Of a stretch of DNA of 64,000 nucleotides, positions 3,247-43,294 are shown piece by piece. The DNA comes from Atractiella rhizophila (lineage: Eukaryota). The stretch is taken from assembly GCA_021432655.1 (NCBI GenBank), contig MU271181.1, positions 15,189 through 79,188 of the forward strand. Direction: 5' to 3'. The translations under genes were made by a program, and so were the position numbers. The stretch's first letter is position 1; every line of letters begins with the position of its first letter. A model generated the notes under the pieces. It was not told the DNA's origin. It was given only the letters and a program-made list of their open reading frames with translations, and did not search any database.

Positions 3247-6200
3247 AAGGGTGGGGTTCGATACGATGGGAGCTGCAGCTGTTGACCCGGAACGAGAGGA
3301 GCTATCGGAATCGTATCGTATCGGATGGGCATCAGTCGATACGCGGCGACTCCGAAGCCGTATCGTATCGTATCGGCACGGTAGGTCAATGTCAACCTCG
3401 TTCGACATGGGTTCCGATACGACTGAGGCGGCGTCAGTCGATCGGTTTACGGCGTCAAGAGAAGGTGGAGGGACAAATGCATGGCTAACTGGTTCAATGC
3501 AAAACTCATAATCATTCCACATCCCAACGGTGTCATGTTCCTGCTCTTCAAGTAACTATGCTCCGACAGTTTCCCCCTCTTTCTGTTTCCGGAGTTCCTC
3601 CAGCTTCCTCAACAGGGCTCTCCGTTCCCCTGTCCGATCTAATGCAAGCTTTGCCTTCGTGATAATCAAGGTCCCAATAGTAGATGGCATTAGGCGGTGC
3701 CTTCGGATCCCGATTGTGTCCCTTGCACCTGAGAATACTCGCTCAACACCAACGGCACACCCTTTGAAGCAATCGATGAGCTAGCAATCCAGTGGACACA
3801 AGAGAGGCATCAAAGGACAAACCAGGGATAGACAGTATATCTCTTGCCATATGAGATCATGCTGGCATTGCCTCTGCTCGATTCCGGTACCACTCAAAGA
3901 TGTCAGCTGAAGCAGGGAGTTGACGTTGTTGCATGTAGTACTCAACCTCTCGCCTCGCTTCGATGTCTGCTAAAGCATTCTGCCCTTCGAGGTCACTGTC
4001 ATTGATATGACTGTCATTAAAGGCGTCGTCGAGATAAGATCCGGTAGACTTCAGTTCTGTAGATGTGTTCGGAGGCTGAACAGAGAAGCCTTGGCCGTAT
4101 TTCGGAAAGTATTTGGTTTTGAATAATTCGATGAGATTGAGCTTGTGCTGCTCGACAGCAGCCTTTTCGAATTCGGTAAAAATTGAGCGCTGAAAAAATG
4201 TGGGCCCAAGTCGAGGATCAAGAACTACTCCCATTGTGAAGATCAGTAAATTGATGAATGGAGTAAGGATTATCAGCCACGAATGTATGAGCACTTACGA
4301 GCAGCATAAACATAGTAGGGGGAATCGTCTGAACGATAATGGTATTCGGCAAGCTTTGTGTGTGCTTCAACAAGACCAATTCGGTATTCCTTGGAGAGGT
4401 CAGGAGGGAAGGCTATGATTATCTTCTTTAGGTGATTTAGCAAGCCATGGTCCTGGAGGAGGGTGAATGAAAGACAGGGAGTTGAAGTTGTTGACATGCG
4501 AATTGTTGCATCTCTGAATGCCTGCAGCCACTTGCAAACAATCTTGACTCCTTCCCAATCAGCTTCAGACAGGCATTAATCCTTGTCCAGTTCATAATGT
4601 TTGCAATATCGGTCAATAGCAGGTCTGCATCTGTTAGCTAGATCCAACATCTCGTGGGTTGAGCCCCAACGAGTTCGGACATCAAGAATCAACATTCTCA
4701 GTGTAGTGCGGGACATACTCTCTAGCTCAGTTAAAGCTTTCTCAAGCTCCTGGAGCCAGCTGTTGCGACGATTTGGGGAACTACGGATGCCTCTTATTAA
4801 AGTGCGAAGGTGACAACTGGGACTCAGATTCACAGTTCAAATGGAAAAGGGAAGAAATGATAGACATACTTTAGGGATAGCGCCTTTGAAGGAACTGATC
4901 TCATCCTCCAAATACTCATCCTCCGCCCTTGCCGCATCATCGTGAACTGCTCCAACTTTCTCTGTTACACATTCTTGATAACCTTTGCTTCGCTTCTTCC
5001 TCTTTCCATCAGAATCAGGTTTAGCCCACACTCCAAGGGAATCAAGGAGGGCAAGGACAGCAAGATGGATGATGTGGGGGAAGCATCGAATCCGTCGCTC
5101 CTTTGCATCAAACGGAATGCCTCGAGAAGCAAATTTTTGAGCAAGAGCAGACATCATCGTGTTGTTGTTAGATGCATTGTCTGAGGTAATGCAACCAATC
5201 TGTTATTTATCCAATGCATCAGCGCATACAATGCGAGTGGAAGACAAACCTTTGAAGCAATTCTAAGTCCATGATGCATTTCCACACTACCTCTGCCATA
5301 TTCTCACCGGTATGCGAACCTTGAAGCTCTGCGAAGTCAAGAACGACTTCAACGAGGTCCCAATCACGGTTGATGTAAGTACCAGTGATGCAGAGAAAGG
5401 GAAACCATTCTCAGAGGTCCAGGCATCTAGAGCAAGATTGATCGTTGTGTCTGCCTCCTGTACCCACTCAATTAAAATAGCTCACAAACAGCTATGAAAT
5501 ACGCACCATTACCTCTTTCTTAAGATCACACATGACAGTGGCACCTTTTTTCATCACGTCCTCCCTCAATCTCTTCCTCATTGGCAGTTTCATGGACTTT
5601 GCATCCGCACCATTGAGATTTGCTTCTTCATCACTCATACCCCCCTCATCATCGCTATTCCAGGACAACACTTTAGGAAGTGTAACCTTGTGTTCAGGTT
5701 TCATGGTCGGGTAAGTGTACTGGAGGCAGTTGAGGAGGTCACGGAAGTGTGGATTTTCGACAAGCTGAAAAGGCTGATCGGTGGTTATGAAAAAATTAAT
5801 CAGTAAGTTTTAGAACTTTGTCTGATCGAAACCCTGTAACTGAGAAGTAAGTAAAAGCAGTGCACGATAGAGAGAAGAATGACGTACCTGATCCCCAAAG
5901 CGAGCCATGCCCTGCAGCTGATCAAGGATGTCAAGCTGACTCTCAGATCTTTTGTCCTCACCAATTGTTATCTGTCAAGGCATAAAGATAAGTATTGCGA
6001 TAAATAATGAAAGAATGCAGACCGGAATCTCATTGCCTGCCTTCTTCTTTTCCTCCTCCGATATTGGCACTTTGTCTTCATACTTTTTCTTTAACAACTT
6101 TAAGAGGGGACCGGTGGCCTTGACATGGCATGGGGATCCGGTAAGATGATCCTCGAGATGGGTGAGTTTTCCGTTGCTGCTTTTGGTGATCTGATTTGTC

Positions 6201-7595
6201 CACCGACAGTGCTTGCATTTGACGTAGGTTGTTCCTGTCTTGTGTCCATTTTATATGTCAGGATGCGCATCGGACTTTGAAATGACGGAGTAGAAGAGCC
6301 AGACAGGGTTTCTCCTCTTCGACTTAGTCTAAGAATGCATCAGAGAGATCATAAGCTAATATGAATAGAACTTAATTACTTGATTGTTCATTTGATTATC
6401 GTCTGCAGCGACTTCTCGTCCAAGCGGATTAAGTGTTGAGACTGATACCGTGTTAATGGTAAAAATCTGTTCCCAGAAACATTTCGTCAGCGAGCACAAA
6501 ACAAAGGGAAGACAAACCATTGTTCGGGTACTCCTATTGCCCTTTGGATTCACCTTCTTGTTCTGTTCCAGTGATTCTGCCAACTCAACATCATCAATCT
6601 CCATCCCAATGGGATCTTCCTCGTCCTCGCCCAAGGCATTGCTATCATCCTTTGCAGGATCATATTCTGTGTCACTCCCCCGACATTGTCAACCAGCCCT
6701 TCAGCAGCAAGTACTGCATGGATCTGATGTGCAACGGCACAGATAGAATCCTTTCGTGCATTGAGGAGATAGGTTGGTATGGAGGAGTCGTCAACTTGGA
6801 GGAGTTTCAGCCACAGGACTCGAAGCGCGATGAGTCCCTGTTTTCCTCCAATATCACCAAGACCGGGGCGCCAGAGAGAGAAGGTGTGATGAATGGGCTC
6901 CTCATCGTCCTCATGAAGCGAAGCAACTTGATGAATGAGATTCTGACAAGCAACGAAGAGCTTCGCCATGCTCTATAAACTCCTCATCAGCAAAGGAAAG
7001 GGTGGACATTGACAAAAACACACATATTTTGGGTCTGGTTGGAGGGTGTGCGAGGCTGCAAGCAAGATCTTCAGCTCAGCATAGCCTGGTATCTTTTGGT
7101 GCCTTCATGCACATATCAATCACTGAGCCTTTCAAGAAGGAAATAACAGCCTACTCTGATTCCTCATCCTTCCGCCTCTTGGACTGGCTCAGTGCAGTTC
7201 CATCCTCATTGTTCCTCTTCGCAATATCCACTGAAGTGCGGGACCGTTTTCCTAGCCCAAGAAAGTCCTCCAATGTTGCCATGAGCTTGAGATCAATTGA
7301 ATGGAAAGAGGCATATGATGGGGAAGAGCTATATAGAGCGGAGGATACAAAAAGGTCGTGACGACGGAAGTGAGGCTCAGTGAGGACTTGAGGACTTGTT
7401 ATTGATACCATCACCCAAAATCATGAATCGCGGATCGTATCGAATCGTAAAAAGTGTGGCCTGGCAGTTCGATGGATGCTGTGAATCGTATCGAGCCGAA
7501 TCGACAATCGCCATTCTTCAAAACCTTCGAACGATGTACGATAAGGCATCGGAGCTGGCGGAGCTGCTATGATTCGACTTCGATAGCCATCCCTA
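3247..7595 (-). mobile_element. hAT DNA transposon (hAT-1), near full length
   Basis: The right end at 7581-7595 reads tagggatggctatcg on the minus strand. The left end (aagggtggggttcg, about 3247) is degenerate. CpG-rich subterminal tatcg/gaatcg repeats occur at both ends, and the interior encodes a transposase. No intact TSD. Confidence 0.88.
3556..7282 (-). pseudogene. Multi-exon hAT transposase with BED finger, carrying in-frame stops
   Basis: BED finger CKHC...HLEDH; catalytic motifs LALDAWTS, TSDNASNN, RCFPHIIHL, DVRTRWGSTHEML and GCAVGVERVFSGARDTIG. In-frame TAA codons near 6251 and 4576. Confidence 0.9.
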
Positions 7596-8060: not shown

Positions 8061-9815
8061 ATGTCCAAGCGGCAACGAAACGACTCTAACAGTAGTCAAT
8101 CTTCAGAAGAAAGTCAAAGAAGACCCTATTCTCAAGCAATTGAGATAGATGATGATGAGAGTGATGCAGTTTAGCTGACTGCTCGAAAGTGCCACCCTGA
8201 TCTGCCCAAATCCGCTAACATCAAAGTTGATAAGACATTCAAGGCTTGGGAAGATAAAGACATCATTAGTATGTACTTGTTTGAAGTACGATTGTGCAGA
8301 GCATAAACTGATTAGATTTTTCTCAGACTTTGATGTTGAGACTAGGATTCTTCCTATCACACTGGGAAGTGTGAAGGGAAAAAATCCTTGTGAGGAGGGT
8401 ATATGTGTATTTTACATTGCGGGGCATTGCGGGGCATGGTCGATGGACCCAATGGAACTTGCTGGATTCCACGTTAACACGATGGTCCCACTTGCACTTG
8501 AGAAGTATGCAAAGCAAACAATACAGGAAGAGATACCGAAAGGATTGAGAAAGGACCTGGAAGTGGAGCTGTTTCCTCATATTCGATTCAAGCCAGGACC
8601 AAAAGGAATATCATTGAGGATGGCCAGGAGATGGCTGAGGAAAGAGGGATTTCAGTGGACATATTACAAGAAGGGTCTCTACTTTGAGTAAGCTCTTACT
8701 CTGTGTACAGCTTAGCTGATGTCTTCCAGTGGTCATGACAGACCAGATGTCATCAAGTATTGGCAGGACATCTTTATCCCTACCTTTGAAAGATACCTCC
8801 CCCAACTACGCTAGTATGAAGTTAGTAATATAATGAAGGAGGTCATCAAGGACCTTCCTCCAGATACATGCCAAGTTGTCCTTGTCTCTCACACTTCTCA
8901 TGGGTGCTGGATGGACAATCCCAATTCGGAAGAAGGGGCAAGGCCATGGTTTGCACCGGTCAGACTTCATCTAGGTGAGCAGTTAGAGTATGGGAAGAAT
9001 CATGAAGGATACTGGAATGCAGAGAAACTTGCTGAACAGGTCTATCTTCCTTGCTCTTGACTGTCCTTATTGATGATTAGTGGCATCCATCAGATACACA
9101 GGTTGTGAAAAAGGTCATTCCTGTTTTTGAATGATTGTATCCAGGAGACCAGGCTCTTCTAATGTTTGATAACTCAACTGGGCATGTAACCCTTGCAAAA
9201 GATGCTCTTAATACTAAGCATATGAATGTCGGACATGGTATGTGCTTCATTCACTGGAGGGATCTGCAGATATCAGGAATCACTGATCTTTTAGCAGGAG
9301 GTGCCCAAGCAAAGCTGAGGAATGGCTGGTGGGTGGATGTGAGGGGGGAGAGACATACTGAACAGATAGTATATGAAGATGGAACACCAAAGGGAATGAA
9401 GGTGGTCCTCCAGGAGAGAAACCCTGGCTCCCCAGCTTGTGAGAAAAGTGTAAAGAGGTTACCGACCATTGTGATGATCACATGTGTTGTGCAGGTGGGC
9501 CACATCCATTTTTCTCTGTGCTTTTGCTTACTATTGCATCAGAGAGATGGCTTGCTGCACAGCCTGATTTCAGGAGCAAAAGCCGCTTGTACAGGAGATC
9601 CTTGAGCAGAAGGGGACACCAAGCAATTTTCTTACTGAAGTTTCACTATGAACTGAATTTCATTGAATTCTTCTGGGGAGCAATGAAATGATACATCAGG
9701 GGTTAGCTGCATTCGTCTCCTTTCAGTTTCTAGCTGACTCAAGGGAGCAGAAAATTGTGATTATACCTTTGAAGGGTTGAAGAAGACAGTTCCAGAGGGA
9801 ATGTGCTCAGTGCCT
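8061..9815 (+). mobile_element. Decayed fungal Tc1/mariner (IS630, DDE_3-type) transposase
   Basis: RMARRWLRKEGF..YKKGLYF, GHDRPDVIKY, YGKNHEGYW, FDNSTGH, PKGMKVVLQER, KFHYELNFIEFFWGAMK and NCDYTFEGLKKTVP. The expected first catalytic HDE motif is missing after VLVSH, and there are several stops. Confidence 0.85.
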
Positions 9816-12800: not shown

Positions 12801-13053
12801 AGCAGAAACTGATCAGATTGCTGTTCGCCGCGCCGTTCTCATCACGAAGTTACTCTCTTAATCAAAACAGCGGATAACCTCTACGACTCTAAAGTATCGG
12901 GTTCATCTAGATATCTTTTCTTCGTTCTGTCACTCTGATGAACCTCAGGTTCAACATATCTCTGTTTTCATTTCAATTTGAAGCCGTGCTCTTACATTGA
13001 GGTTTTGTCCGATCTTGATTTTGATTTATTGGTTTATATGCCCCTCCCCCCTT

Positions 13054-13228
13054 TAGCCATCGCGACGTCAGTCATCCCTTCATCGCAATTACGCTATTGG
13101 GTACTGCATTTGGTTTCGTTAGGGGGAAGTGATGTTGACCTTTGGTGATGTAGTTTACATTGGGTTCCCAGAGCTACGTTGACTACAGTCTGACGGCTCT
13201 TTAATATGACTACAATGACAATAACAAA
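13054..13228 (+). mobile_element. LINE-derived 3' end (stem-loop plus degenerate CAA tail)
   Basis: tagccatcgcga (13054-13065) and agagctacgttgactacagtctgacggctct..aatatga match the 3' UTR of the LINE at 35354-36730. Confidence 0.75.
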
Positions 13229-14335
13229 ATACTTATAACAAAACGGAATGTACTTTTCTGCTTGGAGTGGTGCCTTTCTGCGTTCAAATAAGACATGAAA
13301 GGGGAGGAAAACATATTTGTTGACGCGCATATCAACTTCACAGCATCTGAGGCGTCATTTCGCCGCCTATCCAACCATCAGCTCCGCTCCTAAGTGTAGA
13401 CAACAAAACGATTTACCCTCGCTCTCTCTGTGCATATCTATCAGAATTTCGGCTGTTCTCTTGACGATGTCTCCATCGGGCAAAGAAGCTGTATTGGCAG
13501 GGTCGAGGAAGAAGTCGCGAAGGTTTTCCCACGTTAGCAGTTGTACGTGACCACCTGGGTTGGATGGATAGACGTATATGCCTTCGTGGGAGAAAGACAG
13601 GGGAGAAGGTTCTGTTTCTACATATGGAAAAGAAACTCAGCTTTTTGAGGAGGTGGGACGGAAAAGGCTCGCGAGAAGACAAGCTCATGAGTTTTCAGTG
13701 GCTGGAAATGCCTTTGGTGGTTGATCTTGCTGATTGCGATGTTTTGAGAGGCAATAGATCGAGTAAGAGGCTGTTTATATCCTTCGAACTGCAGTGTCGC
13801 TCGTTGAGCTCGTCTACAGTTCGTACGGGAGCTACGCGTGAGCGAATCACAGACAACGTCAGCTGACAGGTACACCGCAGCAAACAAACCTCTAAACAAA
13901 CCTCTCAATGAAGAGAGCCTGAGTTGGGCTCATTACGTTGAATATGATAACCCCAAAGCATTAGTCTGTAAGTGTAAGATGCCAGAAGTGTAAGATGCCA
14001 GCGTGAGCTCACGCTGCATATCAACAACGGAGTGTGCAGACAAGTACAGAAGCAAAACTATTAAAGCGAAAATGCACACATACGCAAGAACAAACGTTGG
14101 GCGCCAAACGGTGCCCTCAGGCATCCCCCTGACGCCTGAAAGGAGTTTTTTGCCCCTTGAACTGAACCACAGCGCGACTGTAGGGAGCGAGAGCTCGCCT
14201 ATGGCGAGCACTATGAAAGAGAGAAGACATCAACATGGTGAATGTGTGAGCCTTACATGATAAAATGTATACTCTGACCAAGAGTCGAACCCCGTGAGCG
14301 GATTGCGTCGGGATCTGCCTCGGAGATGAACAGAC

Positions 14336-14447
14336 CAGGGGTCGGAGTCAGTCGGAGTTAAAACTGGTCGACCAGTTTTAGTTTTGCACTTCACAAACTG
14401 GTCGACCAGTTTTGGACCAGTTTTAACCCCGACGATCTCCTACCCTG
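14336..14447. mobile_element. 112-bp palindromic MITE-like element
   Basis: Imperfect TIRs of about 33 bp: caggggtcggagtcagtcggagttaaaactggtc versus the reverse-complemented right end cagggtaggagatcgtcggggttaaaactggtc. Flanked by ac on both sides. Confidence 0.7.
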
Positions 14448-14456
14448 ACGCGAATC

Positions 14457-15396
14457 ATGTCTGACGTTTGCTCAGTAGACACCTTAGCTGAACTCTCCAA
14501 ACTCGCAACCTCAGGCTCCCTTCAACCCCCTCGCAAGTTCATTCCTGTCACCCATCTCGACTTCTATGGTGGCGACTTGGAAGAAGCGGTCAATCCTGTA
14601 ATCGTCTGTGATGGGATGCACGCGTTTGGGTTGGAAGAGAAAGAGCCAGAGCAAGTGACTGGCACTAGGAAGAGGAAGAGGAGCACTGCAACTGTGCGAC
14701 AATCAAACACTCAGAAGTGGCGCAATAGCGTGAAGGACGATGGAGATAATACGAGGATGGTGAGAGGATTCAGAAAGATCGCTACTTTATTGACCATGAC
14801 GCGCCGACCGAAGCTAGGCGTGTCAGCTCTTTGTTCCCTTCACATGTGACTAACTTTTGTTCACAGGCTGCATTCCACTTGTCAGAATCCCGACGCTCAG
14901 ATGTACGCCTTTTCTTCCGTTCGTTCATTGGAAAGGCCAAGCACTCACACCCTTAATAGCGGAAATCCACGCAAGAAGCGATGCATGGTCAATGATCGTA
15001 CCGATGTCCCAACCGATGACTCATTACAAAGTTCGTCTCTGCTACCCCTTGATAGCAATTTGCAGCTGATTTTTATATATGTGGGAAAGTGAATCATTCC
15101 AATCGTGGAGATGACAGCAAAGAGCTTACTCGGTCCCTTGTATCCTCGATCGCGATCAAGCGGCAGCAGAACACGTTCGTCTTTATCCACGCATGCCCAC
15201 CAGATACTTATTTACAAATCTTTTCGGAAACAGATTGGCCGCTCGCCGATCATGTGCCAAGAAACAGGAACATATCAGGTCGCTCGAGCAGGAGGTGAAC
15301 AAGTTGATGCACGAGAGGGACACGTGGAAGCAGAAAGCTGAGATGTCCGAGGAGGAGTTACGGTGCGCCACTGGTGCAGACGCGCTCGGAGGCTGA
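14457..15396 (+). CDS. Hypothetical multi-exon gene, possibly decayed
   Basis: ATG-initiated 130-aa ORF with an NLS-like RKRKR, and a downstream coiled-coil-like ORF (KQEHIRSLEQEVNKLMHERDTWK). No recognised domain. Confidence 0.3.
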
Positions 15397-15691
15397 AGCA
15401 ACAGCTATATGGGATTTTTTTTCCTTATGGCGCGAGGACGCCATTTTGTCTCGTGAAGGACTTGGAGAAAGAATGGCTGTTTAACGAGCGTTTGTGTTGG
15501 TGGTGGGATTTTAGTGTAATAAGATGTACAACCCTCATCATTTCGAGCGATGCAGCCCTGTGCTCAATCCAAAGCGGGAGTGTGGTGCAGTCCCTCACAA
15601 CTGCAACCAGATGCCTTCCCTTGCCGGATGCCTTCCACAACAAACCAACTTGAAACCTCATCCTGATCCCATTCGCCGTTATGTCAACCCG

Positions 15692-16000
15692 TGTCAGAAA
15701 TTCACAAGCAGCCATGCCCCCTCCCACCAACGACGATTCAGTTGGCGGTCTCGTCCGACACTCCTTAACGTTCTGGCATTTGCCTGAATCTGCCCTTCGA
15801 GATGACGAGTAGAAACAGATAGAGGATGTTGATTCCGAGGGTCTAAAGGAATGCATTAATGCATTACAATGAAGTTATAATTGGCTTTTTATACCTTGAG
15901 GAACTTGGCAAAAACAAGAGAAACGGCAAAGGGGAAAGAAAACTAGAGCCACAAATGACAGTGGCACGAATGCAGCATAAAACGGTGCCAAACTCTGACA
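15692..16000 (-). repeat. LTR-like repeat, copy 1
   Basis: Bounded by tgtcag and ctgaca. About 15805-16000 is an inverted, high-identity copy of 43117-43294 and includes a TATA box (gtataaaaag). No TSD found. Confidence 0.6.
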
Positions 16001-17589
16001 GAGGATGGTACAATCGATTTCATGGTGCGGAAGCGAAAGAGACAAATTGCAGATAGCAGTGGAGAAAGAGAGTTTTTCGTACTCCTAGCAGACACCGATC
16101 CTCATCTCCACCGCTCAACTCTCCATCCGGCCCTCTCCGTCAAACTCCATACCATCCCACAACGCCAGCGAACAGCTCAGCATCGATTTCTTTTCGCTCG
16201 CCGCCTTTTAGACGTCCATGGCTCCATCAAACTGCAGCTATTATTGGATTTGCCACCTCAGGCCACCAACGCACTTGCAATGGGCAAGGCCCCTTGAACC
16301 CGACGCTAATTCCGGCCGCTCATTAGAGCGGGGTTCGAGTCCAGGGCCTCGCCGTTTGTACCAGCCTCCGCTTACACGGTCTGGGAAGCTGCAAGGGCGA
16401 CTGCCGCTGCACCTCTCTTCTTCCCTCCCATCAACATGGATTCCACCGAGTACGTTTCGCTGATTCACGACAATAGCTGTCGAAGAGACAAAGCGCATTT
16501 GGGGACGCAACTGTAAGATTGCCTGCGTTGTGTCTCTCGGCTCTGGAATTGCACCTGCCGTCAAGTTGGACAATGTCGAGCGAGCTTTGAAGGGCGATAG
16601 CTGCGGATTGCTCAAGGGTTGCAAACAACATCGAGATGAAGATGCAGCGAAGTCAGACGGGCCACTGCCACCGTCGTTTCTCGGTTGATACCTAGCCGGA
16701 ACAGGGCTCTTTTTGAGATCCTTGTCCAACCACTGCCAACGGTGAAAATCATCGACGTCGACCAAGCACCATTGCCTGGGATTGACAATATTTGGGCAAT
16801 GAAAAAACCATACTTCAACCATTCTGAGAGATAATGTATTAATCATCAGCGAGTGATGGCCAAGTAACCACGTCTTGGCAATGCTTTTGCGGCTCGACGA
16901 TGCTTGAACAAAGATTGTAGGAAACAGTTGTAAGATTATATAAAAACCGTGAAGCCACAGCATGAGATCCGAAATAACAATTTTCAAGATCTGATAATTT
17001 CTTAAACATTCGACTCCAAGATGGCACCAGCAGATTCAGATTTGGTTTAAATCGCTTGAATTTTTGTATACCACCTTTACTACAGCCTGTTTCTCTCCCT
17101 GTCGCTCTTCCCGTTCCTTACGTCCTCCTTCTGCCTCGCATCGCATCCCCTTCACGATTTCCCACCTGCTGCTTTCCTCCAGCCTCCAGTGGTCCGCACA
17201 ACGTCCCATTGTTACCAACTGTCGTGGAGATGTCAGGAGCCGAGCGGAGGGGATGCGAGTGGTCGTTCGAGTTGTCATTCGAGTTAGGTCGACAATAGCG
17301 GGGAATTAATGACAATAGACGGCTAATCAAGTGTTAGAAGTGCAAGGTAGGGCGAGGAAGCGACAGCGCACCTGTTCCTCTGCTGTGAGGATCAGTATTA
17401 TGTCGGAGGGACCTGTGGCCAAGGGAAATGGAAGGTTGTAGGTTCGCAGGTTGTGAATTTTCGGATCTAAAATGTGGTTCAGGAGTTTGCCTGGTACGTT
17501 CTTTAGCTTCGTGATATCTCTGTTTTGGGATGCTTACCTTTGACGCCTGGTGCTTCCAGGGTTTGAAACTGTGTTCAAATCAGCAACTG

Positions 17590-18540
17590 TAACCAACCTC
17601 TGATGGAAGGCCACGTACCTTGACAGCCTGATACAACCGGTTCAAGATATGAAGCACGCCGACCAAAACGGTAGGACGCAGGATCTGCATGTCCTCGACG
17701 AGCCGGAGTGTATCACCACAAGCGAAACCGAGCAGACATCCAGGGAGGATTGGGCAGGAAACAAAAGCAATGACTTTACCCAATACCTGCGTGTCGCCTC
17801 AGCTGAAGATTCAGGGCAGGGATGAAAGATGGGGGACTCACACATTGTGAACTCCTCGATGAACTGTTCATAGATGCGGGAGAGAGGGTTGAAACTGAGC
17901 GCAACGTCCTCGGCAGTGTTTATGCCGCCGCTGTAACGAACACGATTGTGAAGTCGTGATCCATCTAGTACAAAAGCACGACGAACTGCAGGTTTCCAAG
18001 AACCGCAGAGGTGACGCTGGCATGCGTGAGGATTGAGCCTTTTGGGGTACCGGTCGTTGCGGACGTGTAGCAGATGGAGACCATATCTTCTGGCTTCGGA
18101 GGGATGTGAGGAAAGGGATTGGCGGCGCCTAAAGCTTCGACTGATGACACCTTTGAGTCAGATATTCACCTCAGAAGAAAAAACGGAGCACAACGCACTT
18201 CGTCGAAGCCCAACACTTTCAGACCCACTTGCCTTCCCCATTCCTTCAACATGTCCCTCGTCTCATGGCTCCGACCTATCCCATTACGATGACACGCCTA
18301 ATGCCGTTGGTTAAAAAGGCTGATGAGTGGACCGGGAGGCTCACATTCCATGTTAACGGTGTGGAACATGATCCATTTCTACGAGGAGGCGTTACTAGAG
18401 CTATGTGAAACCAACAAAGATGTTACTTACACATGAAATCATAACCTTTGTCTCCGAAGTCCTAGTCTATGGTCAAATTCAGCTCAGCCTAAAACGTTAT
18501 AAATGAGACTGACGAGGCAAGTAGCAACAGTCGTTCCGTG
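17590..18540 (-). pseudogene. Long-chain fatty acyl-CoA synthetase (AMP-binding) fragment
   Basis: SICYTSATTGTPKGSILTH (AMP-binding motif, G replaced by A), LSFNPLSRIYE and GDTLRLVEDMQILRPT...LNRLYQ. The C-terminal half is absent and stops are present. Confidence 0.85.
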
Positions 18541-19944
18541 AAGCTATACTAGATAACTCGAGTGAGCAAGATCCTTTTGGTCATACAAAGAGATTATCGG
18601 AGAACTATTGACAGGAACGAATTCTGCAACCAACATGAACCAACGTGAGTGCCTGCTCTGATGACCTGATATTGTAGAAAGAACTCCAACCGCTGAAGAA
18701 ATGATACAGGATACAGTTCTTCGATATAATTAAGAAGAAATCCCCAGTGAGGACGTCGGATTATAATGTGAAAGATAAGAGGTAAGGCACGAACTGCTAG
18801 GCTATTCATTTAGGAACGCTCCAAGGCATCTAGAAAGGAGTCATTACAGCTGGTACCTTCGTGACAATAGGGAGATTCGCTCACGCTCAAGCTCTGTGAA
18901 TTTGGTAGAGAACTTACGGATATGTGGAATCGCACTCGAAGACATTGAACATCCATTTCATTTCTCTCGCCACAATATATCTTTTGTTAGCAGAGAAATT
19001 GAAGTCGGAAATACGTACATGCCGAAGATGTGGCAAACTTCAGCGAGTTTCACGCGTTGGTAATATGGCTTCGTTTGCCACCCATTCCGAAAACTCAGAC
19101 CTCAGCTTTTTGCTTCATTCCCGCACCACAGCCCATAGTACCACGCCTTCTCCATTGCATACTCCGCCCCCTACTAGCCAGACAATCTTCACACAGCTGC
19201 TCACCTACAGAGACAACTTCATCCTATCCAACCAGGATTTTGAGATAGACTTCGCTTCCTACCAGCTTCATCGCAGAGTCACACTGGCATTAGAGGGAAA
19301 ATCAAGAGTGGAAGGAATGGGAGAGGATCGTAATGGGGAGGGGTCGTCGTTTTGTTGACGTCAAACATCTGTGCGAATTAAAAACATAAAAATTGTGAAA
19401 CGATAATGACAAGAGTCTAAGCACTATTGCGGCAATTGTTACAACACTTGGGTACTTTTTATTCAGTGTTGTCTCTCAATTATTTCCCCGTGCACCATAT
19501 CATAACTGCTGTCATGCTTGTCATGCTTCGATGTTTGATTCATTCAAGCAATCTTGTGAGACTTGAATCTGCCAGTCCGAGTTCAATTGCCTTCAAATTT
19601 GATTCACAGGAAGAATATATTTAAACATTTGATGGTGGTGAAATTAAAAGGGTGTGTTTTATACTGGTGGAGCTGGAACAAAGTATGTGCGTATCATGGT
19701 GCAATTCGTTGCGGTGACAAATGTCTGGTGCCTCCCATGGCCAATGGGTTGCAATGGACCAATAGACCAGTGGTTCAGGACGCAATCACCCTAGTGCTAG
19801 CTCAAGCGCAATGTTGGGAGCAGCGGCCTCTCAGACTGCATTGTGTAAACTTTGTTTGTTATGCGTTTTTCCGTTGTAACAGTGCTAACAGCCTCCCAAT
19901 TTAGTCATGCCTTTCTTGCCTAATATTTTCCAGTCCGGTCTGTC

Positions 19945-22900
19945 TAGGGATGCTCAACGGGACGGGTCGGGTCGTAAACCCGTACGGGTTCGACGTCGTT
20001 TTTGACGTGCGGGATCTGAACAGTGACCCGTGTTACTCGCCCGCTTTGTTAATGGGACGGAGGACGTGCGTCGCGCCAAAGTTGTGTACCCCGTCTTCGT
20101 AAGTCCTTCGTCAACAGTCCAATAGGTTCTGACCTGACAACATTACATGGAAGCTCCACGATGTTCGTTCTGCCACCCATTCCCAGTCCTTGGACCTCCA
20201 GAACATTCTTCCCCAACAATGTTACCCCGGCCTCTCCTCTCGACCTGCCGTTTCCCAACCAAAAAGTCGATAAAAGGAGGCAGACCTCTAGAGCTTTTGT
20301 CATTCCCGCAAAACGGTCTATCAACATGGTGTCCAAAAGGCCAGCTCGACAAATCAAGATTGTAGACATGGTGAAGCGGAATAATGAAGAAGGAACTGCC
20401 ATCAGTAAGGCAGAGAAAAAGAAGCATGAACGAGAAGCGTATGTCTATGTCCCTTGACGATTTGTCCTGTTCATTGACTATTAATTGTGTGATAGGAACT
20501 CAGACATTCCTGGATACAAGGAGCTTGAGGTTTTGATGGCAGCCGCTACAACGATAGCACATGATCAAGATTATGTGTGTTATTTCACTTGATCCGGTAA
20601 TTTTCACACATCAAGTATAGACTACTTCCTGGCTTTATACAACATGCAAACACCTTCAGACCCAGCTGTCCTCCAAGGATGAAGACAGTGATTGCCCCTT
20701 CCACCGTGCCTTCTCTGGATACCGCCCCCAGTCTTCAGCAGATTCCGGTTTTCGACGTGGGCTCAAGAGCCTCAAATCTGTTTGGGATGGGCTGTGTGAA
20801 AGTCAAAAGACATATGGCATCCCTGACTACCTTGTTCGATCTCGAAAGGCTTCATTGTGTGCGGCTGCCATCCATTTTCACAACTTCCTCGCTGCGGATT
20901 TGATAGTTAATGAGATAGGAGGGGATGGCGGCCTTTTCGTCCTTTCTTCAGGTGAGGAAGATGCTTTGGAGATGGATATCAGTGAAGAGGGAAGCGGAAA
21001 GGGAGAAGATGAGATCAAGGTCTCAAACGAGGAGGTGGCCAACATGTTGCCAACAAAGATATTCAAGAAGTCATGGAAGCGCAGTCAGGTCCGTCCCCTA
21101 TTCTGCTCACAGTAAATTGAATCCTCTCACAGATCCAAGCACAGCTTGTCTCCACAATGACGCCTCACACTCCTCTTCAGATGTGCATTCAACAGCGTAC
21201 GCGCTCTAAGGTAGATACATCCTTTCCAGTATGGTTTGGTCTCTCTCACTCGTCTGATGTAGGCCAACATTCGACGCAGTGTCACCATCCACAATTTCTT
21301 CAAACAAGTCTCCCAAGATTCCGTGCCCAAATGGGTCAGGAAAGGACATGTCCAAGGAGACAAGTATTATCAATGCAATCACTGCGACTACATGTCTCGA
21401 GTGACAAAAGCAAGCCATAATAACTATTCTGTTCTCGAAAACCATCTGAAGACAGCCCAAAATCATAAAGGGGCTTATGCCCTTTACCAAAAGTTCAAAC
21501 TTATAGGAAAGCGGGAAGTTGATATTTCTCAGGAGGATATTGACAAAGCTGCAGGCCGCATTCCCGTTTGTTCTTCGTTTGACTCGTTGTTCTATGAGTT
21601 ATTAATACATTTGACAGATTACGGAGGCAGACAGGGAGAAAGCGAAATTACAGGCTTCATCAATTAAGAAGATGATGAACCGGCTGATGGAGGAGTATAA
21701 AAGCCAAGTATGTATTCTATTCCGCCTGATTCATGCTGACGATGTTTAGGCCTTTGATCAGCAAGTATTTGATGACCTTTTAATCAAGTATATTGTCAGT
21801 ACCGACCAACCATTCACAAGTGTCACCTCATCTGAATTCCTTGAGCTTCTCCTCTGCCTGCAGTGGACAATCCCGATCTCAAAACATCAAGAGTTTCCTG
21901 CTCTGATGGATGGCTCCGTTCTTGATGAGGATGCTGAGGATGAAGGTGAAGATGAGGTGATGGAAGTCGATGAGGAGAAGAAGGGATTGAAACTACCGAG
22001 CCGCCATACTATGAAACGAAAGGTTGTATTGATGGCGGAGGATGTTAAGGAGCATATAGGACAGAAGTTACAGGTATGTGCTTTAACTGAGAACTACGAA
22101 TGTGTACCATGTATTCATTGCTTGGTTTCTAGGCACTGAATACAAAGATACACCTGGCGCAAGACTTATGGACCTCTGACAATTGTTATGCCTTTTTGGC
22201 CATTGTCGCTTCATTCATCAACGATGACTGGGTCTTAGAAGTCCCAATTGATTTTCAAGAGCTTGAGGGATCACATACTGGAGAGGCTATCGCAGCTGCA
22301 ATCATGAAGACGGTCAATGATTACGGTATTGTTGGGCAGGTATAGACTCTCTTTATTTTACCAGCAAAATAGAATCTCATGGTGCTTTTCCAATCATAGC
22401 TAGGATGCATAACTGCAGACGGCGCATCAAACAATACAACGGCAGTCGAAGCTATTCAGTCCCGACTGCTTCACCGCAATATCCCCTTCAATGCAAAGGA
22501 ACGATGCATCTACTGTGCTCCACATGTCATCCATCTCGCGGCGCTGGAGCTCTTGGAGATTATGGGGTGCTTTTCCTGAAAAGGAGAATGAGGCTAAAGA
22601 TCTGGTCGCATGGCAAGCGGAGGTAACCAGGAAGGTCAAGATCGGCGGTGGAGGTCTGCCGTTTGAAGACAATCCGGATACTGGGGTGCAGGTCGGAATG
22701 GTGAAGGAAACCATTGCAAAGGTATGCCTTTACTCACTTGTTACATTGCTGAATGTGTTCCACTCCAGCTTCGATCTATCAGTAAACACCTTCGTCTAAC
22801 ACCTCAGCAACGTAAATCATGGTTCAAAATACTTGAGGAAACCCTTGATGGGCTTGGAAAATGTTCAGATGAAGAGCTGAAGATTCTCATCCTGGACGTA

Positions 22901-24253
22901 CGTGTTCGCTGGTCGTCAACACATGACATGCTTGTGCTTTGCCTTCGATATCGAGAAGCGATAGAGAAATATGTGGATCAGTGTGGGTTGGAGCGGCAAC
23001 GTTTGACGAAGGCAGAATGGGACGGGGTAGGGGTGGTTACTACCTGGCTCGAGTCCTTTCGTAATGCCACACTCGAGATGTCAACTACCTCCTCTCCATC
23101 CCTCTCTTCAACCCTAGGTGTGTATTAAGGGCTTATGGGAGAGCTTAAAGAGGCAATCACAGAGATGTGTCCTACTATTCCGGAGGTGTTCAGGGACGGC
23201 TTAGTAAATGCTCATACAAAGTTGAGCACTTACAACGCCCTCTTGTATCAATCTCCTTATCCACTGTGGTCTGTTTGTAAGTAGTTTTCTCTCTGCCCTC
23301 ACTTCCCACTCTCACGCTGTCCATCGTAGTTCTTGATCCTTGCCTGAATCACCACTTTTTTGCAAACTCTGTTTTCGACGAATACCGAAATGCAATTGAG
23401 GCGAGCAAAATGGCGTTGATCAACCATTTTAAAGTCAACTACCTGCGCAAAGGTCGTTCATCACCATCAAACAGCTCCTCTCCTACCGCATCCTCCAAAC
23501 AAATGACACAGCCAGCACTTTCTTACGCAGCAAAACTCATGCAGAAGGCCAATCAGCGAATCAAAGCAGTCCAGGAGGATGAGAACAAGCAACCCAATAT
23601 CTGGTTTAGCCTTCCTCTGCAGGACTGGACAACGGATCCCTTAGAGGTTTACCGAGTGAGGTCCAAGACTGATTTGAAAGAGTGGTCCCAAATGGCAAGG
23701 GACATTCTTTCTATTCCTGGTTTGACTTTTACTATTATCTATTCTGGGTTTCAAGCTGACCAACGTGATTGCACAAAGGATGCTCTGTTGCTGTGGAGCG
23801 TGTGTTCAGCGGAGCGCGTGACACGATCGGCATCCGTCGTGCACGCCTTAAACCGGACACCATTCAAGCTCTCATGGTTCTTAAGGCTCAGTTGAAGTTG
23901 GAGAGAGATGAGAAAACGAGGGAACTGAAGGTAGCCCTGGCTGACACTGCTAACGGATCTTAATCGACATTTATGAAGTTTATATCCATTGTGTCATTTC
24001 TTCCTCTTATTCTTTCGCTTCCTCTGCATCACGTTGCTTGCTTGCTTCAGCTTAATAAACTAGTACACATCTTCAAAATAGAATAGAGTATTGCAAGACG
24101 CGACACGTGAACCCGCTCTAGACCCGTAACCCGTCGACTTGACGTGTGACTCCACCTTTGGAACCCGTCTTCATGCACCTGCCCGCCTTCAGTCGACGTT
24201 GAGAAACGTACGGGTTTCCCCCTCGTCCCGTAACCGCACGTTGCCCATCCCTA
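19945..24253 (+). mobile_element. Complete hAT DNA transposon (hAT-2), 4309 bp
   Basis: TIRs tagggatgctcaacg and (reverse complement) tagggatgggcaacg match 13/15. Perfect 8-bp TSD ggtctgtc at 19937-19944 and 24254-24261. Subterminal cccgt/acggg repeats. Confidence 0.97.
20326..23963 (+). pseudogene. Multi-exon hAT transposase with BED finger
   Basis: BED finger CNHC...LENHL; LAQDLWTSDN, TADGASNN, PHVIHL, DVRVRWSSTHDML and SVAVERVFSGARDTIG. In-frame TAA at 23126-23128 (GVY*GL). Confidence 0.92.
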
Positions 24254-24852
24254 GGTCTGTCTAGCCGCCATTTTCCAGCTACATCTTATCTTCGATGCCA
24301 TCCATATTTTGAATGCAGCCATTGCAATCGCAGATATCCATATCCCTACGCCGTTATCAGTGTGCACCGTACTCTCTCATGTGCAATGTCTCAACGTCCA
24401 TACACATCATTTACTTTCGATTATGCCGTCGCCGTTACTTCGCTCAGCAGTGCAGCCATGACGAGGGATTGGTTTGAATTCTCTCCCATACTTTGCTTCA
24501 AGTTGTCTTTGTGATCTTGGTTACATTTAAATGCGATGGATTGGTTAAACACTTGAATGTTACTTTGACAGTTGAAAATGAGGCCCTCTGTTCATTTGAG
24601 CTCGGAAACTAAAGCTGGGAAAGAATAGGAGAATTTGAAGAGGGTTGCTTGACATCTTGAAATTTGGACGTGATGGCTGAGAAGAAATTTGGCTTGAAGC
24701 AACAACGTAGAAATGAAGTTAAACGTTGACACATTGTAACGAGTTTAGAACAACTAAGAGCATTTCCTGCTAATGAAACTACAAACGACATCAAACAACA
24801 ATCAGCCTAGAGTGACAGTAACCTCGCGATGGGGACTATGATGCGACTTAAA

Positions 24853-27198: not shown

Positions 27199-30100
27199 AT
27201 GCACAGCGCTATTGCTCTCGAAACTCCATCAGGCTATTCACAAATGTCATTCGACTCTGTTCACGCCTTGATACCTAGTGCTCAGCAATGTGTGGTTGCT
27301 GAAGAGGTGATCAGCGCCACAGCCATGCAGTCCGATACTTTCCAACCACTTGCGCAATTGCCTGTCGATGAGTCAATCTTCCTTGGATCCTTCCTAGCTA
27401 TTTTACAACAAGGTCCAACCGCACAGCAAGAGTTACAAGATCCACTTTTCACACCTACAATTTCAGATGCCAGTCTTTCAACGGAGTCACTCCCAAGCTT
27501 CCTCCAATTGCCAAATCAAAGCACACCTGCAAGCGTTTGCAACTCAACATTCTCTCGATCTGAACATGATGATCCTCATCCTGATCAGCATTGCCCTTCT
27601 CCTCCCAACGGTCTCCAGTAACAGGATCTTCTCATCCGCTTGGGTGGATGTACCTTGAGGAATGCCGTGATATCTCAGATGGTGGTTCACCTCTGACCAG
27701 TCGAGAGATCACGCTATTCGGCATGCTGACATGGTGCAAGCTTAATCATATGTCAGAGCAGGGTTACCAACAGCTACGAGAGCTCCTCCTCCAAGCCGAT
27801 TTCGATGCAAAACTGCTTCCCCACTCTATCAAAACAATCAAGAATCTAGAAACTTGTCTTCCACTGATTCCAATCCATCTCACAAATGTGGAGGCACAGT
27901 GCAAAAGCAGACAAATGGGCAGAGTATCGAAGTCACAGGTCAAGGCACCTTTCTACCATTTGCCGTCTCTAGTTCAGCAGCGAGTTGTCGAGGACCATGA
28001 GATTTTCTCGTCTCTGTGGACCGGATTAGGGACACGACCTCACCAGCGCTCCGAGATGTGGCACGGAGACTTTTGGCATGAGTCAATTGCAATTGCACGA
28101 CAGGATCTACCTTTCCTTGCGCAAAACCAATCGGCTGTGTGGCCAGGATCCTATATATGGTACTCTCGACCACAAATCAAAAATCACGACAGCAGTACTG
28201 TCATTTTCAATCCAAAATCAAAAGCCATTGGTCGTGTAGCAGGGATTTTTCGTGGAACTGGCCCTGATGGGAATGTGAGCGATGACATTCTGGCCAGAAT
28301 CCAGCCTGTTATATCCCTCGAAGACACTTTTAAGGCTCTAACTGTTCTCATACCATCCATTAATGTCGCTAAGGCGAAGAAACTGTGGAAGATCTACCTA
28401 AACGAATCCATGGTTATCGAATCTAGCCGGCGTCAGCTTCTGATCTTGGACTTTGATCATATCGTCAACCTCACCTCCATTACCAGCAGACTCGAGGACT
28501 CCGAACTTTTAATTTGGAAGAGGAACGTAAACTTACTCGAGATGACCTCTTGACTGGTGATAACCTCATCTTAGATACCGTCGTGTTGTTCGGAAAGCAC
28601 CAGACATCAACTCCCGAAACCCTTGGGTTCTCTTCGCTATTTCGGCTCCATCCGACGCTGGCAGAACTTGAGATCGAGCGAGGAGTAATTTCTGAAGAAC
28701 AGCTAACAAAAGGGTTTCCTAGCCCACAGAAGACCTTTGTCATACCTATCTCTTTCTACTTTGATAAATTTGGTGTTTTCAGGACCACCCATCGAACCTG
28801 TGGAGGCCTTTATGCCATGATTGCAGCTTCCCCAGCTTTTCAGCGAGAGCAGCTACGAAATCGAATTGTTTGTGGCATCGTACCATTTGGGACTCACCTT
28901 CGTGAGGCTGGAGCTGAATTTCTGCGCGAGGTTGTCCAGTACTCACGTATGCCATTTCAGCTGCAGCATTTTGATCGACAGACCAACAAGCGCATTACCA
29001 GCAACTTTGTCATGTTTTTCAGCCTGCGGGGCGACGTACCTCAGATGAACGAGGATGCAGGTACCAAGCTTCCTGGTGCGATCCATCCATGTCGCAAAGA
29101 TCTCTCTCTCTGTGAAGACGCCACCAACTTTGCACACAAACCAACAGCACTCTTTAACCTTCAAAGGTCGATCAAGGACTCAAGAAAGACTCGAGAGAAT
29201 GCTGAAACGGCAATGAATGCCACAACTCGAAGTCGCATCATCCGAGACTTTGGATTGTCCGATCTGGAATCAGCATGGACAAGTGCTGGGCTTGTCTGGG
29301 ATCCGTTTCGCCAGACCCCCTCCGACATTCCTCACCCCGAAGGTGCAGGTACCTGCAAGGATCGACTGATCGATCTGAGTTTGCGTCTCGTACTCAGTCC
29401 TGCTGGTCTCGAATGTTTATCTGAGGTTTGACAAAAGAACAATTTCCATCGCCGCCAGGTTACTCTTCTACCCCCAATCCTGTCGGGCACTCCAAGCGAT
29501 TGCAACAGCGAGACGCGTTCAACATCGTGAGTTACGGTGCACTAGCCTTGGATTGCGCTTTGCGCTTTAGATTGTCTGATCCTCGCCATACGTTTGGTAT
29601 CAAGAAGGATACATTCGAGAAGCTGAAGCTTGCTTACCCAGAGGAAATCAAGAACCATGAGCACTGTTTAAACCTCTTGATTGAAACTTGGACTGCCGTC
29701 GCAGAGAGCAACTTCTGCGTGCTCGCGCGCTCGATGGATGAGGAAGCTTACTCTGAGCTTCATGACAATGTCCTAGCAGGTCGACAGGCAATGCTGAAGG
29801 TGCGTAGGTATCAGACACTGATCTACCAGGGTCTGAGAGCGTATGCAGATGTTCGGCCCACTTACGGATGAGTTAGACAAACTCCCGAACATGCACCTCG
29901 CTCTGCACCTAGCTGACGATGCTCGTCTCTTTTCTAATTGCCTTAACTCTTCTGTCGCCTTAGACGAGATTCTGCACAAGGCACCGAAGACACTTGTGCC
30001 ACACACGAATTTCAAGGACATCGATGTCGCCTTCCTCGAGGACGATAATCTTCTCCAAACAATGCGGAGTGTGCTAGCTAGAGGGACAACGGAAGATTGT

Positions 30101-30897
30101 CCTCGCATATCTCGCATCTATACTGCTTTGCAGCATGGGACCCCAAAGTTGTTCGATGGGTACTATTTTGGCCATCACGTTGTGAATGTTGGTGCTTTGG
30201 ATGATCATTCTGGGAAGGTTGGAAATCTTTCACTCGAGCAAGTTGATATCAGGTGAAGAGGTCACTGCTGAGCATCAAGCAACCGATATTATTTAGACTT
30301 CTTGATATTCAGCTCTACTTAGAGCTCTCTGGAAAGGAAAGACGTTCAAGACAACTTATCCATTCGTTGGTGAACTGCGAACAGCCTTCAGTCAAAGAAC
30401 ACATTCGACTCCTCCGTTGCGCCTACCAAGAATGGTACACCATCCCTAATCCGCTAATTGCAGCTGATCACATTTCTAACGAGCTGAGACACTTCGAAAA
30501 ACTGATATATTTCGATACAATCCTCCAGCATAAACGTACGATCCGAGTGGGGGAGCATGTTGGGTGCAATGCACAAGGGCATGCGGGCCAGCTTGTCATT
30601 CGAACAGCACGAGTGGATGAGATATTTATCCATGCACAAAGCAGCCAACATCGCATCTTTCTCAAACTCACATGGTTCAAGGACATCTGAAGCTTCTCTC
30701 CTCTCATGCCATCAGTCCGCAAGTATGAGTTAGACAGGGCAGGGTTGATTTCTTCCATCGCAGGCATCGGCATTCTTTCAAGTTCTCGGGCAGCTCATTT
30801 TTTACCAAATTATAGGAAGCACAAATTCACCGACGTCGACACCGACTCTGTGATTTCAAGTTATCTATACAATCCATTAACAGTGGCAGTGGCATAG
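27199..30897 (+). mobile_element. CMC (CACTA/EnSpm/Plavaka-related) transposase-like gene with C-terminal BAH-like region, frameshifted
   Basis: SEMWHGDFW, ISFYFDKFG (candidate D1), RGDVPQ (D2), HPCRKD, DIPH, PNMHLALHL (H-x3-H), DEILHK (E), then IRVGEHV..ARVDEIFIH..FLKLTWF. Frameshifts near 27620, 28520 and 29428; introns near 29800-29848 and from about 30253. Confidence 0.7.
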
Positions 30898-32479: not shown

Positions 32480-34551
32480 TTATGCCTTTTCAATCAACGT
32501 CCAGTACCTACAAGCATTTTACTGACATTGGACAAGAATCCTGAAAAGGGATCCTATTCCGGCTAGGTATGTTCGGAGATTTCAGGTGGGAAAAATGGGA
32601 ACGAAAGAATGAAGCTATGGGATGCACGAAGGCTTACATGGATGCGATGTGTTATGAAGTGCTTCTTGCTGCTCAATCGCTAGTGAAAGGTATGTTCCTC
32701 CTGGGTGTAATTTCATGCGCACGCTCACTTTCTACTTGTCAGCTTGCAACGATCGTATTGTAGTGTACAAGAAGATTCCACTACTCCTCCCGGCGCTTGT
32801 TACGGAAGAGAGGAGGAAGTTCAGAAAGCGATCGACTTCATTGTCACCCATCAGAGGCATGTCGCCATCATCGGCGGCGCTGGTAACGGCAAATCTACGG
32901 TCGCATTAGAAGTCCTGCATGCAGACGAGATCAGGAGAGAATTCACGACTGTGAAAGATGGAAAGGAACAAGACTTTCGTTTTTGGGGCCGATGTGATGC
33001 TTTCTACGACTTCTCCTCGCTCTCTGCCTACCTCTGCAATGACGTTTTGGGATTGGTTCCCCAACTTGCAGAAAATGACCTTGACGCCGTAGCGAGATAT
33101 TTCCAAGCGCACAAGCGCATCCTCTTCTTGGATAACTTCGAGACGCCCGCACGGTCGGACACGAATAACCTGCAACCATTCTTCCAATCCTTTCTTTCCA
33201 GAAAATGCTCCTTTGGATCCATTCTCGCCGTAGTACACCGCGGCCCTCCGGTGGAACGGGTGAACTCAACAGGAGTAAGATTTCAAGAGCTAGTAATTGG
33301 CGGCTTGCGCGACGGTGCGGTACTGGACATGTTCAATGATATGTACACTGCTGGGAGAAGATATTGCTCGGTCGGGAGCAGGTAGTGAAAATCATCGTCA
33401 ACAAGCTGGACCATCTTGCTTGTCTATCAAGCTCTTCATTCTTCGCGCCAACACGGAATCAACTAAGCCACTGGCAGTTTGGCCAAGAAGTGGGCAGAGA
33501 AGACGACAACTAATGTGAAACGAAGCTTGCGAAGAGACACTCAATCTCGCTACTTCGATATCTTTTTCGCTCGATTCACCTCTTCTCAAAGGAAGACCTC
33601 AGCACTTATATCCTTGCCCTATTATCGTGGACTCCTGACGGTCTCCTGGTGGAGGATATTGTCCCTATCGTGGATAACAGGTGTGCTCATCAATCGGAAC
33701 AGTCTTCCGTGCTCGTCACCACAATCTTAACCGTCGGACTTGCTGAAGACATCTTGGATGTCTTGACAAACTCGAAACGTTTGCGCATGGTGGCACCAAT
33801 TCGCGAACATATCAGTCGCTTGGTCCTAGGTGCCTTTCTACCTTTCAAAGGCACTACTTTATCACTTCAGCCATTGACTGAAGTTCTCAGAGAAGGCTCG
33901 TAAAAATGTACGACGATTCGAAGATGAAGCCGAGTGGATCGGACTGCTGTCGTTTCGCAATGATTATCCAAACCTTGAATATGTCCTTCTAGCTGCCTTT
34001 CAACACATGGATGATCGGACAACAGCATACATCTTCCTAGCAGAAACCTGGAATATCTGTCTCTTCACAGCCTTCTCTGCATAGCATTGTTTCAGTCTGC
34101 TTTATTCTACACAAGATCCATCTCTTCTACTTCATTGACAGCTCGATTGAAGCTGGCTCTTGGATCAGCCTTTCAACAGAAGGGGAACCTACAACAGGCA
34201 CTGATACAGTTTGAGGAGGCGAAGAAGCTGTATGTTATTGTGGAAGATCAGCAAGGCATTGCCCACTGCATTCGCGGTATGGGGGAGATCGAGCGGTGTC
34301 GTAGGCGTAATGAGGAAGCGTTGAAACGGTTCGAAGAGGCGAAGGAGCTGTATGTTGTTGTGGAAGATGTGGGAGGTCAACTTAACTGCCTTTCTAACAT
34401 GGCTTCTGTTTATGTTCAAGACCGCCAGCTCACTAAAGTGATCCATCTTCATGGGGAAATGGTCAATTTGAATGTGACAGTTGGAGGCTACTATGTAGCC
34501 ATGAAGCTCACAGCGGAGAGAAGATGGCCCAACTCTTTTTCGATCTGTTAA
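32480..34551 (+). pseudogene. NLR-like STAND ATPase (NB-ARC/NACHT-related) plus TPR gene, broken
   Basis: CYGREEEV, Walker A GGAGNGKST, Walker B ILFLDNFET, RMVAPIREH and 40-aa TPR repeats (ALIQFEEAKKLY; ALKRFEEAKELY). Multiple frameshifts; no N-terminus visible. Confidence 0.88.
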
Positions 34552-37050: not shown

Positions 37051-37070
37051 TCTGGGACGGTGCGATCCGA

Positions 37071-43116: not shown

Positions 43117-43294
43117 TGTCAGAGTTTGGCACTGTTTTAAGCTGCATTCGTGCCACTGTCATTTGTGGCTCTAGTTTTCTTTCCCCTTTGCCGTTTCTCT
43201 CATTTTGCTGAGTTCCTCAGGTATAAAAAGCCCATTATAACTTCATTGTAATGCATTCCTTTAGACCTTTGGAATCAACACTTCCTTCTACTCG
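43117..43294 (+). repeat. LTR-like repeat, copy 2
   Basis: Starts tgtcagag, contains a TATA box, and is the inverted homolog of about 15805-16000. Confidence 0.6.

Follow-up and report, generated by a model that had tools for sequence, protein, structure and literature searches.

An apparently undescribed, predicted helical domain precedes the BED finger in a clade of hAT transposases from Atractiella rhizophila

In studied hAT transposases like Hermes, the protein essentially starts with the BED finger, and lineage-specific extra domains are not rare on fungal transposases. Members of the hAT superfamily have short TIRs of 10–25 bp and a length of 2.5–5 kb, according to the available text of PMC3942097. 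In Hermes, the first 78 residues contain the BED finger and bind the subterminal repeats (accessible part of bioRxiv 10.1101/2022.09.16.508221). For Rover/Roamer and other fungal hATs, the available portions of PMC4316626 and PMC5751038 report an 8-bp TSD and the domains BED, PF05699, DUF659, DUF4371 and DUF4413. The hAT7 elements of rust fungi, also Pucciniomycotina, have a 7-bp TSD and extra coding sequence upstream of the transposase, a separate TET/JBP dioxygenase gene, in the text available of Kojima 2025 (PMC12730594). In another superfamily, Spm/CACTA, disordered linkers and exon junctions bound the modules, which in fungi usually form one protein with the transposase; the TnpA module is a DNA-binding domain made of a tandem HTH, and transposases are able to serve as sequence-specific activators (bioRxiv 10.64898/2026.08.24.746577, in the part accessible).

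The window analyzed here is a stretch of 64,000 nucleotides from Atractiella rhizophila, a member of Pucciniomycotina. It consists of TE-rich fungal DNA with short GT-AG introns, and holds two hAT copies, referred to as hAT-1 and hAT-2. The hAT-2 element (19945..24253, plus strand) is 4309 bp long, with 15-bp TIRs that start with TAGGGATG and differ at two positions. It is flanked by exactly matching 8-bp TSDs on the same strand (19937..19944 on the left and 24254..24261 on the right), and ACGGG/ACCCG motifs are repeated subterminally. The TSD, the TIR length and the overall size are thus those of a hAT element. The CxxC...H...H of a BED-type C2H2 finger is visible in one exon (21263..21565), and the dimerization, RNase H-like DDE and C-terminal exons follow (21750..23927). 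The transposase is broken downstream of BED by frameshifts near 21665 and 22575 and by a stop near 23126.

The D, D, E, CxxH and RW motifs, which we take to be those of hAT transposases, are encoded in both copies. PF05699 (C-terminal dimerization) is matched at E 0.011 (15.9 bits, under the cut-off of 21.4), the domain being split by an intron. PF02892 (zf-BED) is matched by the relative P0011 at E 0.0016 (18.8 bits, under the cut-off of 20.6) and by neither hAT-1 nor hAT-2. All four matches of a core exon to PDB sequences are to Hermes, and they are weak (E 0.16–0.22). Among named proteins, one from Atractiella rhizophila itself is nearest to the transposase core (77% identity).

The order BED, dimerization and DDE, the RW and CxxH motifs, the short TIRs, the 8-bp TSD and the subterminal repeats are all shared with Hermes (PDB 2BW3/4D1Q/6DWW/8EDG). 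However, about 246 residues, including a predicted folded domain, precede the BED exon here, where the available account of Hermes places the BED within the first 78 residues. The 8-bp TSD is also shared with Rover/Roamer and the other fungal hATs, as are, putatively, BED and PF05699, but none of the domains reported in the portions available of those papers matches the N-terminal domain. The likeness to hAT7 lies in the host lineage and in the extra coding sequence upstream. Membership in hAT7 was considered and rejected, as the TSD is 8 bp rather than 7, and the upstream region is read in frame, is predicted to be all-helical and has no dioxygenase Pfam match. Neither 'Atractiella' nor 'NNEDG' occurs in the accessible part of a supplement to PMC12730594. 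No such domain is described in the available text of PMC5751038, PMC8097297, PMC3942097, PMC4316626, PMC4890040 and PMC5873905. The literature search returned no description of the domain or of Atractiella transposons; Repbase, subscription journals and bioRxiv supplements were outside its scope and may bear on novelty.

The hAT-1 element (3530..7595, minus strand) has a left end of TAGGGATG at 7595, and its transposase is broken in several places. A right TIR matching this left end was looked for and not found. The subterminal motifs, TCGAA/CGATA, are unlike those of hAT-2. An initial annotation of this DNA had proposed a TAGGGATG-ended fungal subfamily. This is partly borne out: the end is found on hAT-2 and at the left end of hAT-1, and the named matches come from one species. 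A 63-nt direct repeat (90%) flanks hAT-1 (939-1001 and 8333-8395), near transposase-like ORF fragments (8179-9605), and hAT-1 may be nested within another element.

Other features of the window lie outside the two copies. A 1.9-kb segment (35207-37082) is bounded by TAGGGATG...CATCCCTA and contains what is left of a hAT C terminus (36944-36997, E 8e-6), along with an RNase H / zf-RVT fragment (35765-36732); its flanks have no matching TSD. Direct repeats at 56573-57423 and 62170-62457, with 76–87% identity and 5.6 kb apart, lie beside a transposase-C-terminus-like ORF that has no Pfam match and no tblastn match to hAT-2, and that probably belongs to another family. Long ORFs of up to 324 residues follow one another at 27585-30690 and look like a large CMC/Plavaka-type DDE transposase of basidiomycetes. 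At 32711-34551, a Walker A motif precedes TPR-like helices in ORFs that resemble a fungal NLR. An inverted duplicate of about 170 bp (15827-16000 and 43117-43280, up to 96% complementary) probably represents a small mobile element present twice.

The regions upstream of the BED exons of hAT-1 and hAT-2 are homologous, as the initial annotation had claimed. The spliced N-terminal regions share 62 identities over 153 residues (41%, E 2e-38), and the local alignment score of 302 compares with a maximum of 59 over 1000 shuffles. Both peptide pairs on which that claim had been based were located in the two copies. Four introns of 44–57 nt are found at matched places and in matched phases (2, 0, 0, 0), extending the single common intron position noted earlier. 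Within the window, the domain profile matches only the hAT-1 and hAT-2 copies.

In hAT-2, exon 1 (20326..20438) encodes a basic segment with a conserved NNE[DE]GT motif and a helix predicted with low confidence. A bipartite-NLS-like pattern is present in five of the 22 collected proteins, in four of them at this motif. Intron 1 (20439..20495, 57 nt, phase 2) is followed by exon 2 (20496..20574), with an IPGY motif and the first helix of the predicted folded domain, and by intron 2 (20575..20620, 46 nt, phase 0), with a GTGTGT donor. The 5′ part of exon 3 (20621..20920) encodes the core of the helical domain. The 3′ part (20921..21088) encodes a linker, acidic and then basic, for which disorder is predicted in a relative. 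Intron 3 (21089-21132, phase 0), a putative exon 4 of 26 linker codons (21133..21210) and intron 4 (21211-21262, phase 0) provide an in-frame link from the domain to the BED finger. All of these features are on the plus strand.

The arrangement in hAT-1, on the minus strand, is equivalent. Exon 1 (7155..7282, with the ATG at 7282) is followed by intron 1 (7154-7103, phase 2), exon 2 (7024..7102) and intron 2 (7023-6973, phase 0), which has the same GTGTGT donor. In exon 3 (6518..6972), a frameshift near 6675 separates the domain core from the acidic linker. Intron 3 (6517-6467, phase 0), a putative exon 4 (6380..6466) and intron 4 (6379-6329, phase 0) lead to the BED exon (6023..6328), which has one stop codon inside. 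The acidic linker reported earlier after the domain is present in both copies, with D/E contents of 13/57 and 16/52 residues. The size suggested for this region, 200 or more codons, holds for the 246 codons that precede the BED exon in hAT-2; the conserved stretch, however, is limited to residues ~10–165, of which about 125 fold confidently in the predictions.

The substitution pattern indicates selection on the protein. Over 151 aligned codons of hAT-1 and hAT-2, pS is 0.77 (saturated), compared to a pN of 0.39 (dN 0.56), and different codons are used at 38 of the 62 identical residues. By exon, the identity between the two copies is 38–56% for the N-terminal pieces and 32–65% for the core pieces. 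Among the ten sequences that have both parts, the domain core is the best conserved (median identity 0.40), ahead of the BED region (0.32) and the linker (0.25). The distances for the domain and BED are correlated (Spearman 0.72, 45 pairs, Mantel p 0.0005), a signal that comes mostly from within-clade versus between-clade pairs. At the sequence level, the domain is thus shown to be under purifying selection and to co-diverge with BED. A dN/dS ratio near 1, with nothing conserved beyond the two copies, had been named earlier as the result that would speak against a selected domain; it was not what we obtained, because pN is well below the saturated pS and the domain co-diverges with BED among the ten sequences.

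These data also bear on whether the domain is a captured fragment of a host gene, carried along as passive cargo (transduplication). None of the 17 matches of the profile search described below is host-like, and conservation at the protein level is maintained across about five clades despite the saturated synonymous sites. This selection signal largely refutes passive carriage, and we consider such a capture very unlikely.

A two-sequence profile (hAT-1 and hAT-2) was searched against 1.84 billion protein representatives, with a cut-off of E≤0.001. The 17 matches comprise 14 'hypothetical protein' models of A. rhizophila, the divergent Logan record P0018 (E 1.9e-4), which keeps the linker motif, and two unrelated repeat proteins. 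Three further A. rhizophila models are present as cluster members, giving 17 Atractiella models. The alignments exclude P0016, P0017 and P0022 as unrelated repeat proteins. The pairwise identity of the core ranges from 0.21 to 0.98, with a median of 0.41 (189 pairs), and the family tree has about five clades. The earlier proposal of a selected extra domain is therefore borne out by the saturated pS against a pN of 0.39, by a family of 17 or more gene models that fall into some five clades and by a confident predicted fold. One of the models, P0007 (KAH8923249.1), fuses to the helical domain a piece that we take to resemble a retrotransposon integrase C terminus; it is probably an annotation chimera of nested elements.

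No named match from any other fungus was found in this profile search, which used two sequences; the searches with deeper alignments were limited to words or patterns. A word-based search of longer proteins for exon 3 gave none from 86 candidates, and the method is judged insensitive because known relatives such as P0003 were missed. A word-based search with alignment A3, covering proteins of 645–2000 residues only, gave 0 of 7997. None of the 368 and 171 matches from pattern scans of metagenomes was confirmed, nor was any of 124 for viral contigs. By these sequence comparisons, the domain is so far known only from Atractiella and one Logan record.

BED-exon sequence follows the domain in nine of the 17 Atractiella models, which are automated predictions from decayed copies; seven of the nine have most of the finger region and two have the tail only. 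The other eight have no credible BED match. A match of P0002 to the BED exon (E 0.003, residues 8–38) was treated as chance.

Reconstruction of the spliced protein of hAT-2, as had been proposed, gives a stop-free reading in frame from the ATG at 20326 to the end of the BED exon (347 codons). By itself, an in-frame join is weak evidence of fusion, since six of the 137 intron-pair combinations give a stop-free join from the domain to BED in hAT-2. The join chosen for exon 4 retains the ST motif of the family and agrees with the phases in hAT-1.

RNA evidence comes from X1, one listed sequencing run whose kind is not recorded. It behaves like a transcriptome because its contigs skip many GT-AG/CT-AC intervals. 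Between hAT-1 and hAT-2 (13000-18600), many intron-skipping X1 contigs are observed, i.e. expressed spliced genes. Intron 1 is supported by an X1 contig from a diverged copy, in which 20437 is directly followed by 20496. The alignment of a second contig, 693 nt long, begins exactly with exon 2 (20496) and breaks off at 21085, three nucleotides short of the intron 3 donor; 54 letters at one end and 45 at the other stay unaligned, a pattern that fits splicing of introns 1 and 3. This contig reads through intron 2 unspliced, and retention of this intron may be regulated. Joints from the domain to BED (introns 3/4) and across intron 2 are absent among the X1 joints listed. From the reading frame, the intron phases and the gene models, we infer that fusion of the domain to BED in the mature mRNA is probable.

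The region could instead be produced mainly on its own, either as an accessory protein or in a short isoform that ends after the linker, and act in trans in the manner of TnpA, VANC or the hAT7 TET gene. If intron 3 is left unspliced in hAT-2, a stop is reached after about 228 codons, and the models P0002, P0006, P0015 and P0018 end at or before this stop. hAT7 also has a separate gene upstream of its transposase, in the available text of PMC12730594. However, the ATG at 20326 is the sole clear start near the left end of hAT-2, introns 3 and 4 are phase-matched in the two copies, and the small exon 4 retains a family motif. Moreover, the alignment of the 693-nt contig ends at 21085 with 45 letters left over, as expected of a splice. 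A separately translated accessory protein, which had been offered at the outset as the alternative to an extra domain, is thus not favored, given the in-frame reading of hAT-2 and the nine of 17 models that carry BED-exon sequence, and we consider it quite unlikely.

In a different reading, the domain and the acidic linker would act in cis to restrain the transposase: the acidic tract would mask BED, and transcripts that retain intron 2, with its weak donor, would yield a short non-functional product. A D/E-rich tract adjoins BED in both copies. Both also have the same GTGTGT donor, and retention would yield products of 69 (hAT-2) or 85 residues (hAT-1). In addition, the 693-nt contig starts exactly at exon 2 and keeps intron 2. 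The N terminus of Ac is dispensable, and Restless is alternatively spliced. Nevertheless, neither precedent was found in the literature search, the retention comes from a single contig of a decayed copy (contig assembly drops variants), and autoinhibition has no obvious need for a conserved fold of 125 residues. Self-limitation of this kind is therefore unlikely.

The predicted structure of the domain is all-helical. For P0002 (AlphaFold2, 20-row alignment), the pLDDT is mostly 88–96 over residues 41–155, and the predicted helices are 45–57, 68–77, 90–95, 108–129 and 133–162; residues 1–30 have a pLDDT of about 55. For P0021, from a second clade, the domain is also confident, residues 174–246 are below 50 and the finger region (~261–350) is at 80–94. 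In these models, the architecture is a domain, a disordered linker and a second domain. The homodimer prediction, with a score of 0.06, is not taken as evidence. The conserved positions (P0002 numbering) include NNEDGT, IPGY, D86/P90/H92/F95/S96/W98/P100, D105/G107/G111, W119, P132, K140, C144 and H151. They are mainly hydrophobic residues, Gly and Pro, together with a D-x3-P-x-H-x-A-F-S-x-W-x-P loop.

The checks proposed earlier with Pfam, AlphaFold2 and Foldseek matched no described family and predicted a helical fold. Pfam, NCBIfam and PHROGs have nothing near the cut-off for the N-terminal domain, and the two matches of a PDB sequence profile (E 0.065) are both outside the domain. ESM Atlas gave no usable match with exon 3, and the best structure row with P0002 has a TM of 0.44. 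A lead from ESM Atlas to DEAD_2 (PF06733) for P0002, with a score of 0.93, was rejected: 152 of 256 features are shared, under the guide of 170, the Cys in the CPF motif of P0002 is not conserved, and none of 20 members matches at E≤0.5. Foldseek found no match at E≤0.001 in PDB and BFVD. Its bromodomain rows are weak (E≥1.4, TM ~0.2), and no bromodomain is among the best 50 VIA-align rows. The best VIA-align rows are 5hiu (Z 5.7, rmsd 2.7, 79 aligned), 7dgy (Z 5.9, rmsd 3.9, 88 aligned) and 6u5b (Z 6.0, rmsd 5.0, 95 aligned). For a predicted model, Z scores of 5.7–6.0 are in the range of common helical arrangements, and are evidence neither of a match nor of a new fold. The sensitivity of the fold searches is limited, as a 455-residue model also retrieved no BED structure.

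A second DNA-binding domain, or one that binds a metal or ligand, could help recognize the GC-rich subterminal repeats. The conserved D86, H92, K140, C144 and H151 and the aromatic F95/W98/W119 (P0002 numbering) would be compatible with this, as would the clade-specific subterminal motifs, ACGGG/ACCCG in hAT-2 and TCGAA/CGATA in hAT-1. The charge does not favor DNA binding, however, since four of the five members checked have a neutral or acidic folded part (K+R 5–16 compared to D+E 10–16 across the five), and P0010 is at +1. Only one basic residue is conserved at ≥70% in the folded core. Moreover, the domain is more conserved than BED even though the repeats differ, and a part that determines specificity would be expected to vary. 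Such a role is accordingly very unlikely. In being bounded by a linker and exon junctions and probably fused to the transposase, the domain resembles the Spm/CACTA module of the preprint cited above, as far as its available text goes, and the two may be functionally analogous; TnpA belongs to another superfamily, and its tandem HTH has no counterpart here, with no HTH match to the domain in the Foldseek or VIA-align searches.

We favor a selected, tethered protein-interaction or regulatory domain of the hAT transposase, and put the probability of this reading at about 0.55. A protein-binding role is the most economical one, because the domain lacks a net positive charge, matches no fold that looks catalytic and is conserved above BED. 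Probably, then, the domain is neither catalytic nor a second DNA-binding domain. The many short exons would be spliced to give a transposase consisting of a basic, NLS-like segment (~40 residues), the all-helical domain (~125 residues), an acidic disordered segment (~80 residues), BED, the dimerization region and the DDE core. By analogy with Hermes, BED would bind the subterminal repeats and anchor the protein at the element ends, presenting the helical domain on a long, flexible, acidic tether. There, the helical domain may bind either another transposase or a chromatin or transcription factor of the host, and would in this way control the place and time of the element's expression or movement.

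The domain is real and apparently undescribed, and marks a hAT clade that radiated in Atractiella. Its reach is limited, to one fungal species and one Logan record, and both copies in the window are dead. It is more conserved than BED and is kept across at least five diverged subfamilies, which argues that it does something the element needs. As it is small, predicted to fold well and easily expressed, tests of its structure, its partner and its deletion are straightforward. There is an outside chance that an undescribed fold serves as a transposase-tethered chromatin reader, or as an anti-silencing or targeting module. If so, no hAT transposase would previously have been described with a built-in module of this type; the module might be of use in retargeting hAT vectors, and it would have enabled the clade to radiate into many families in a TE-rich genome.
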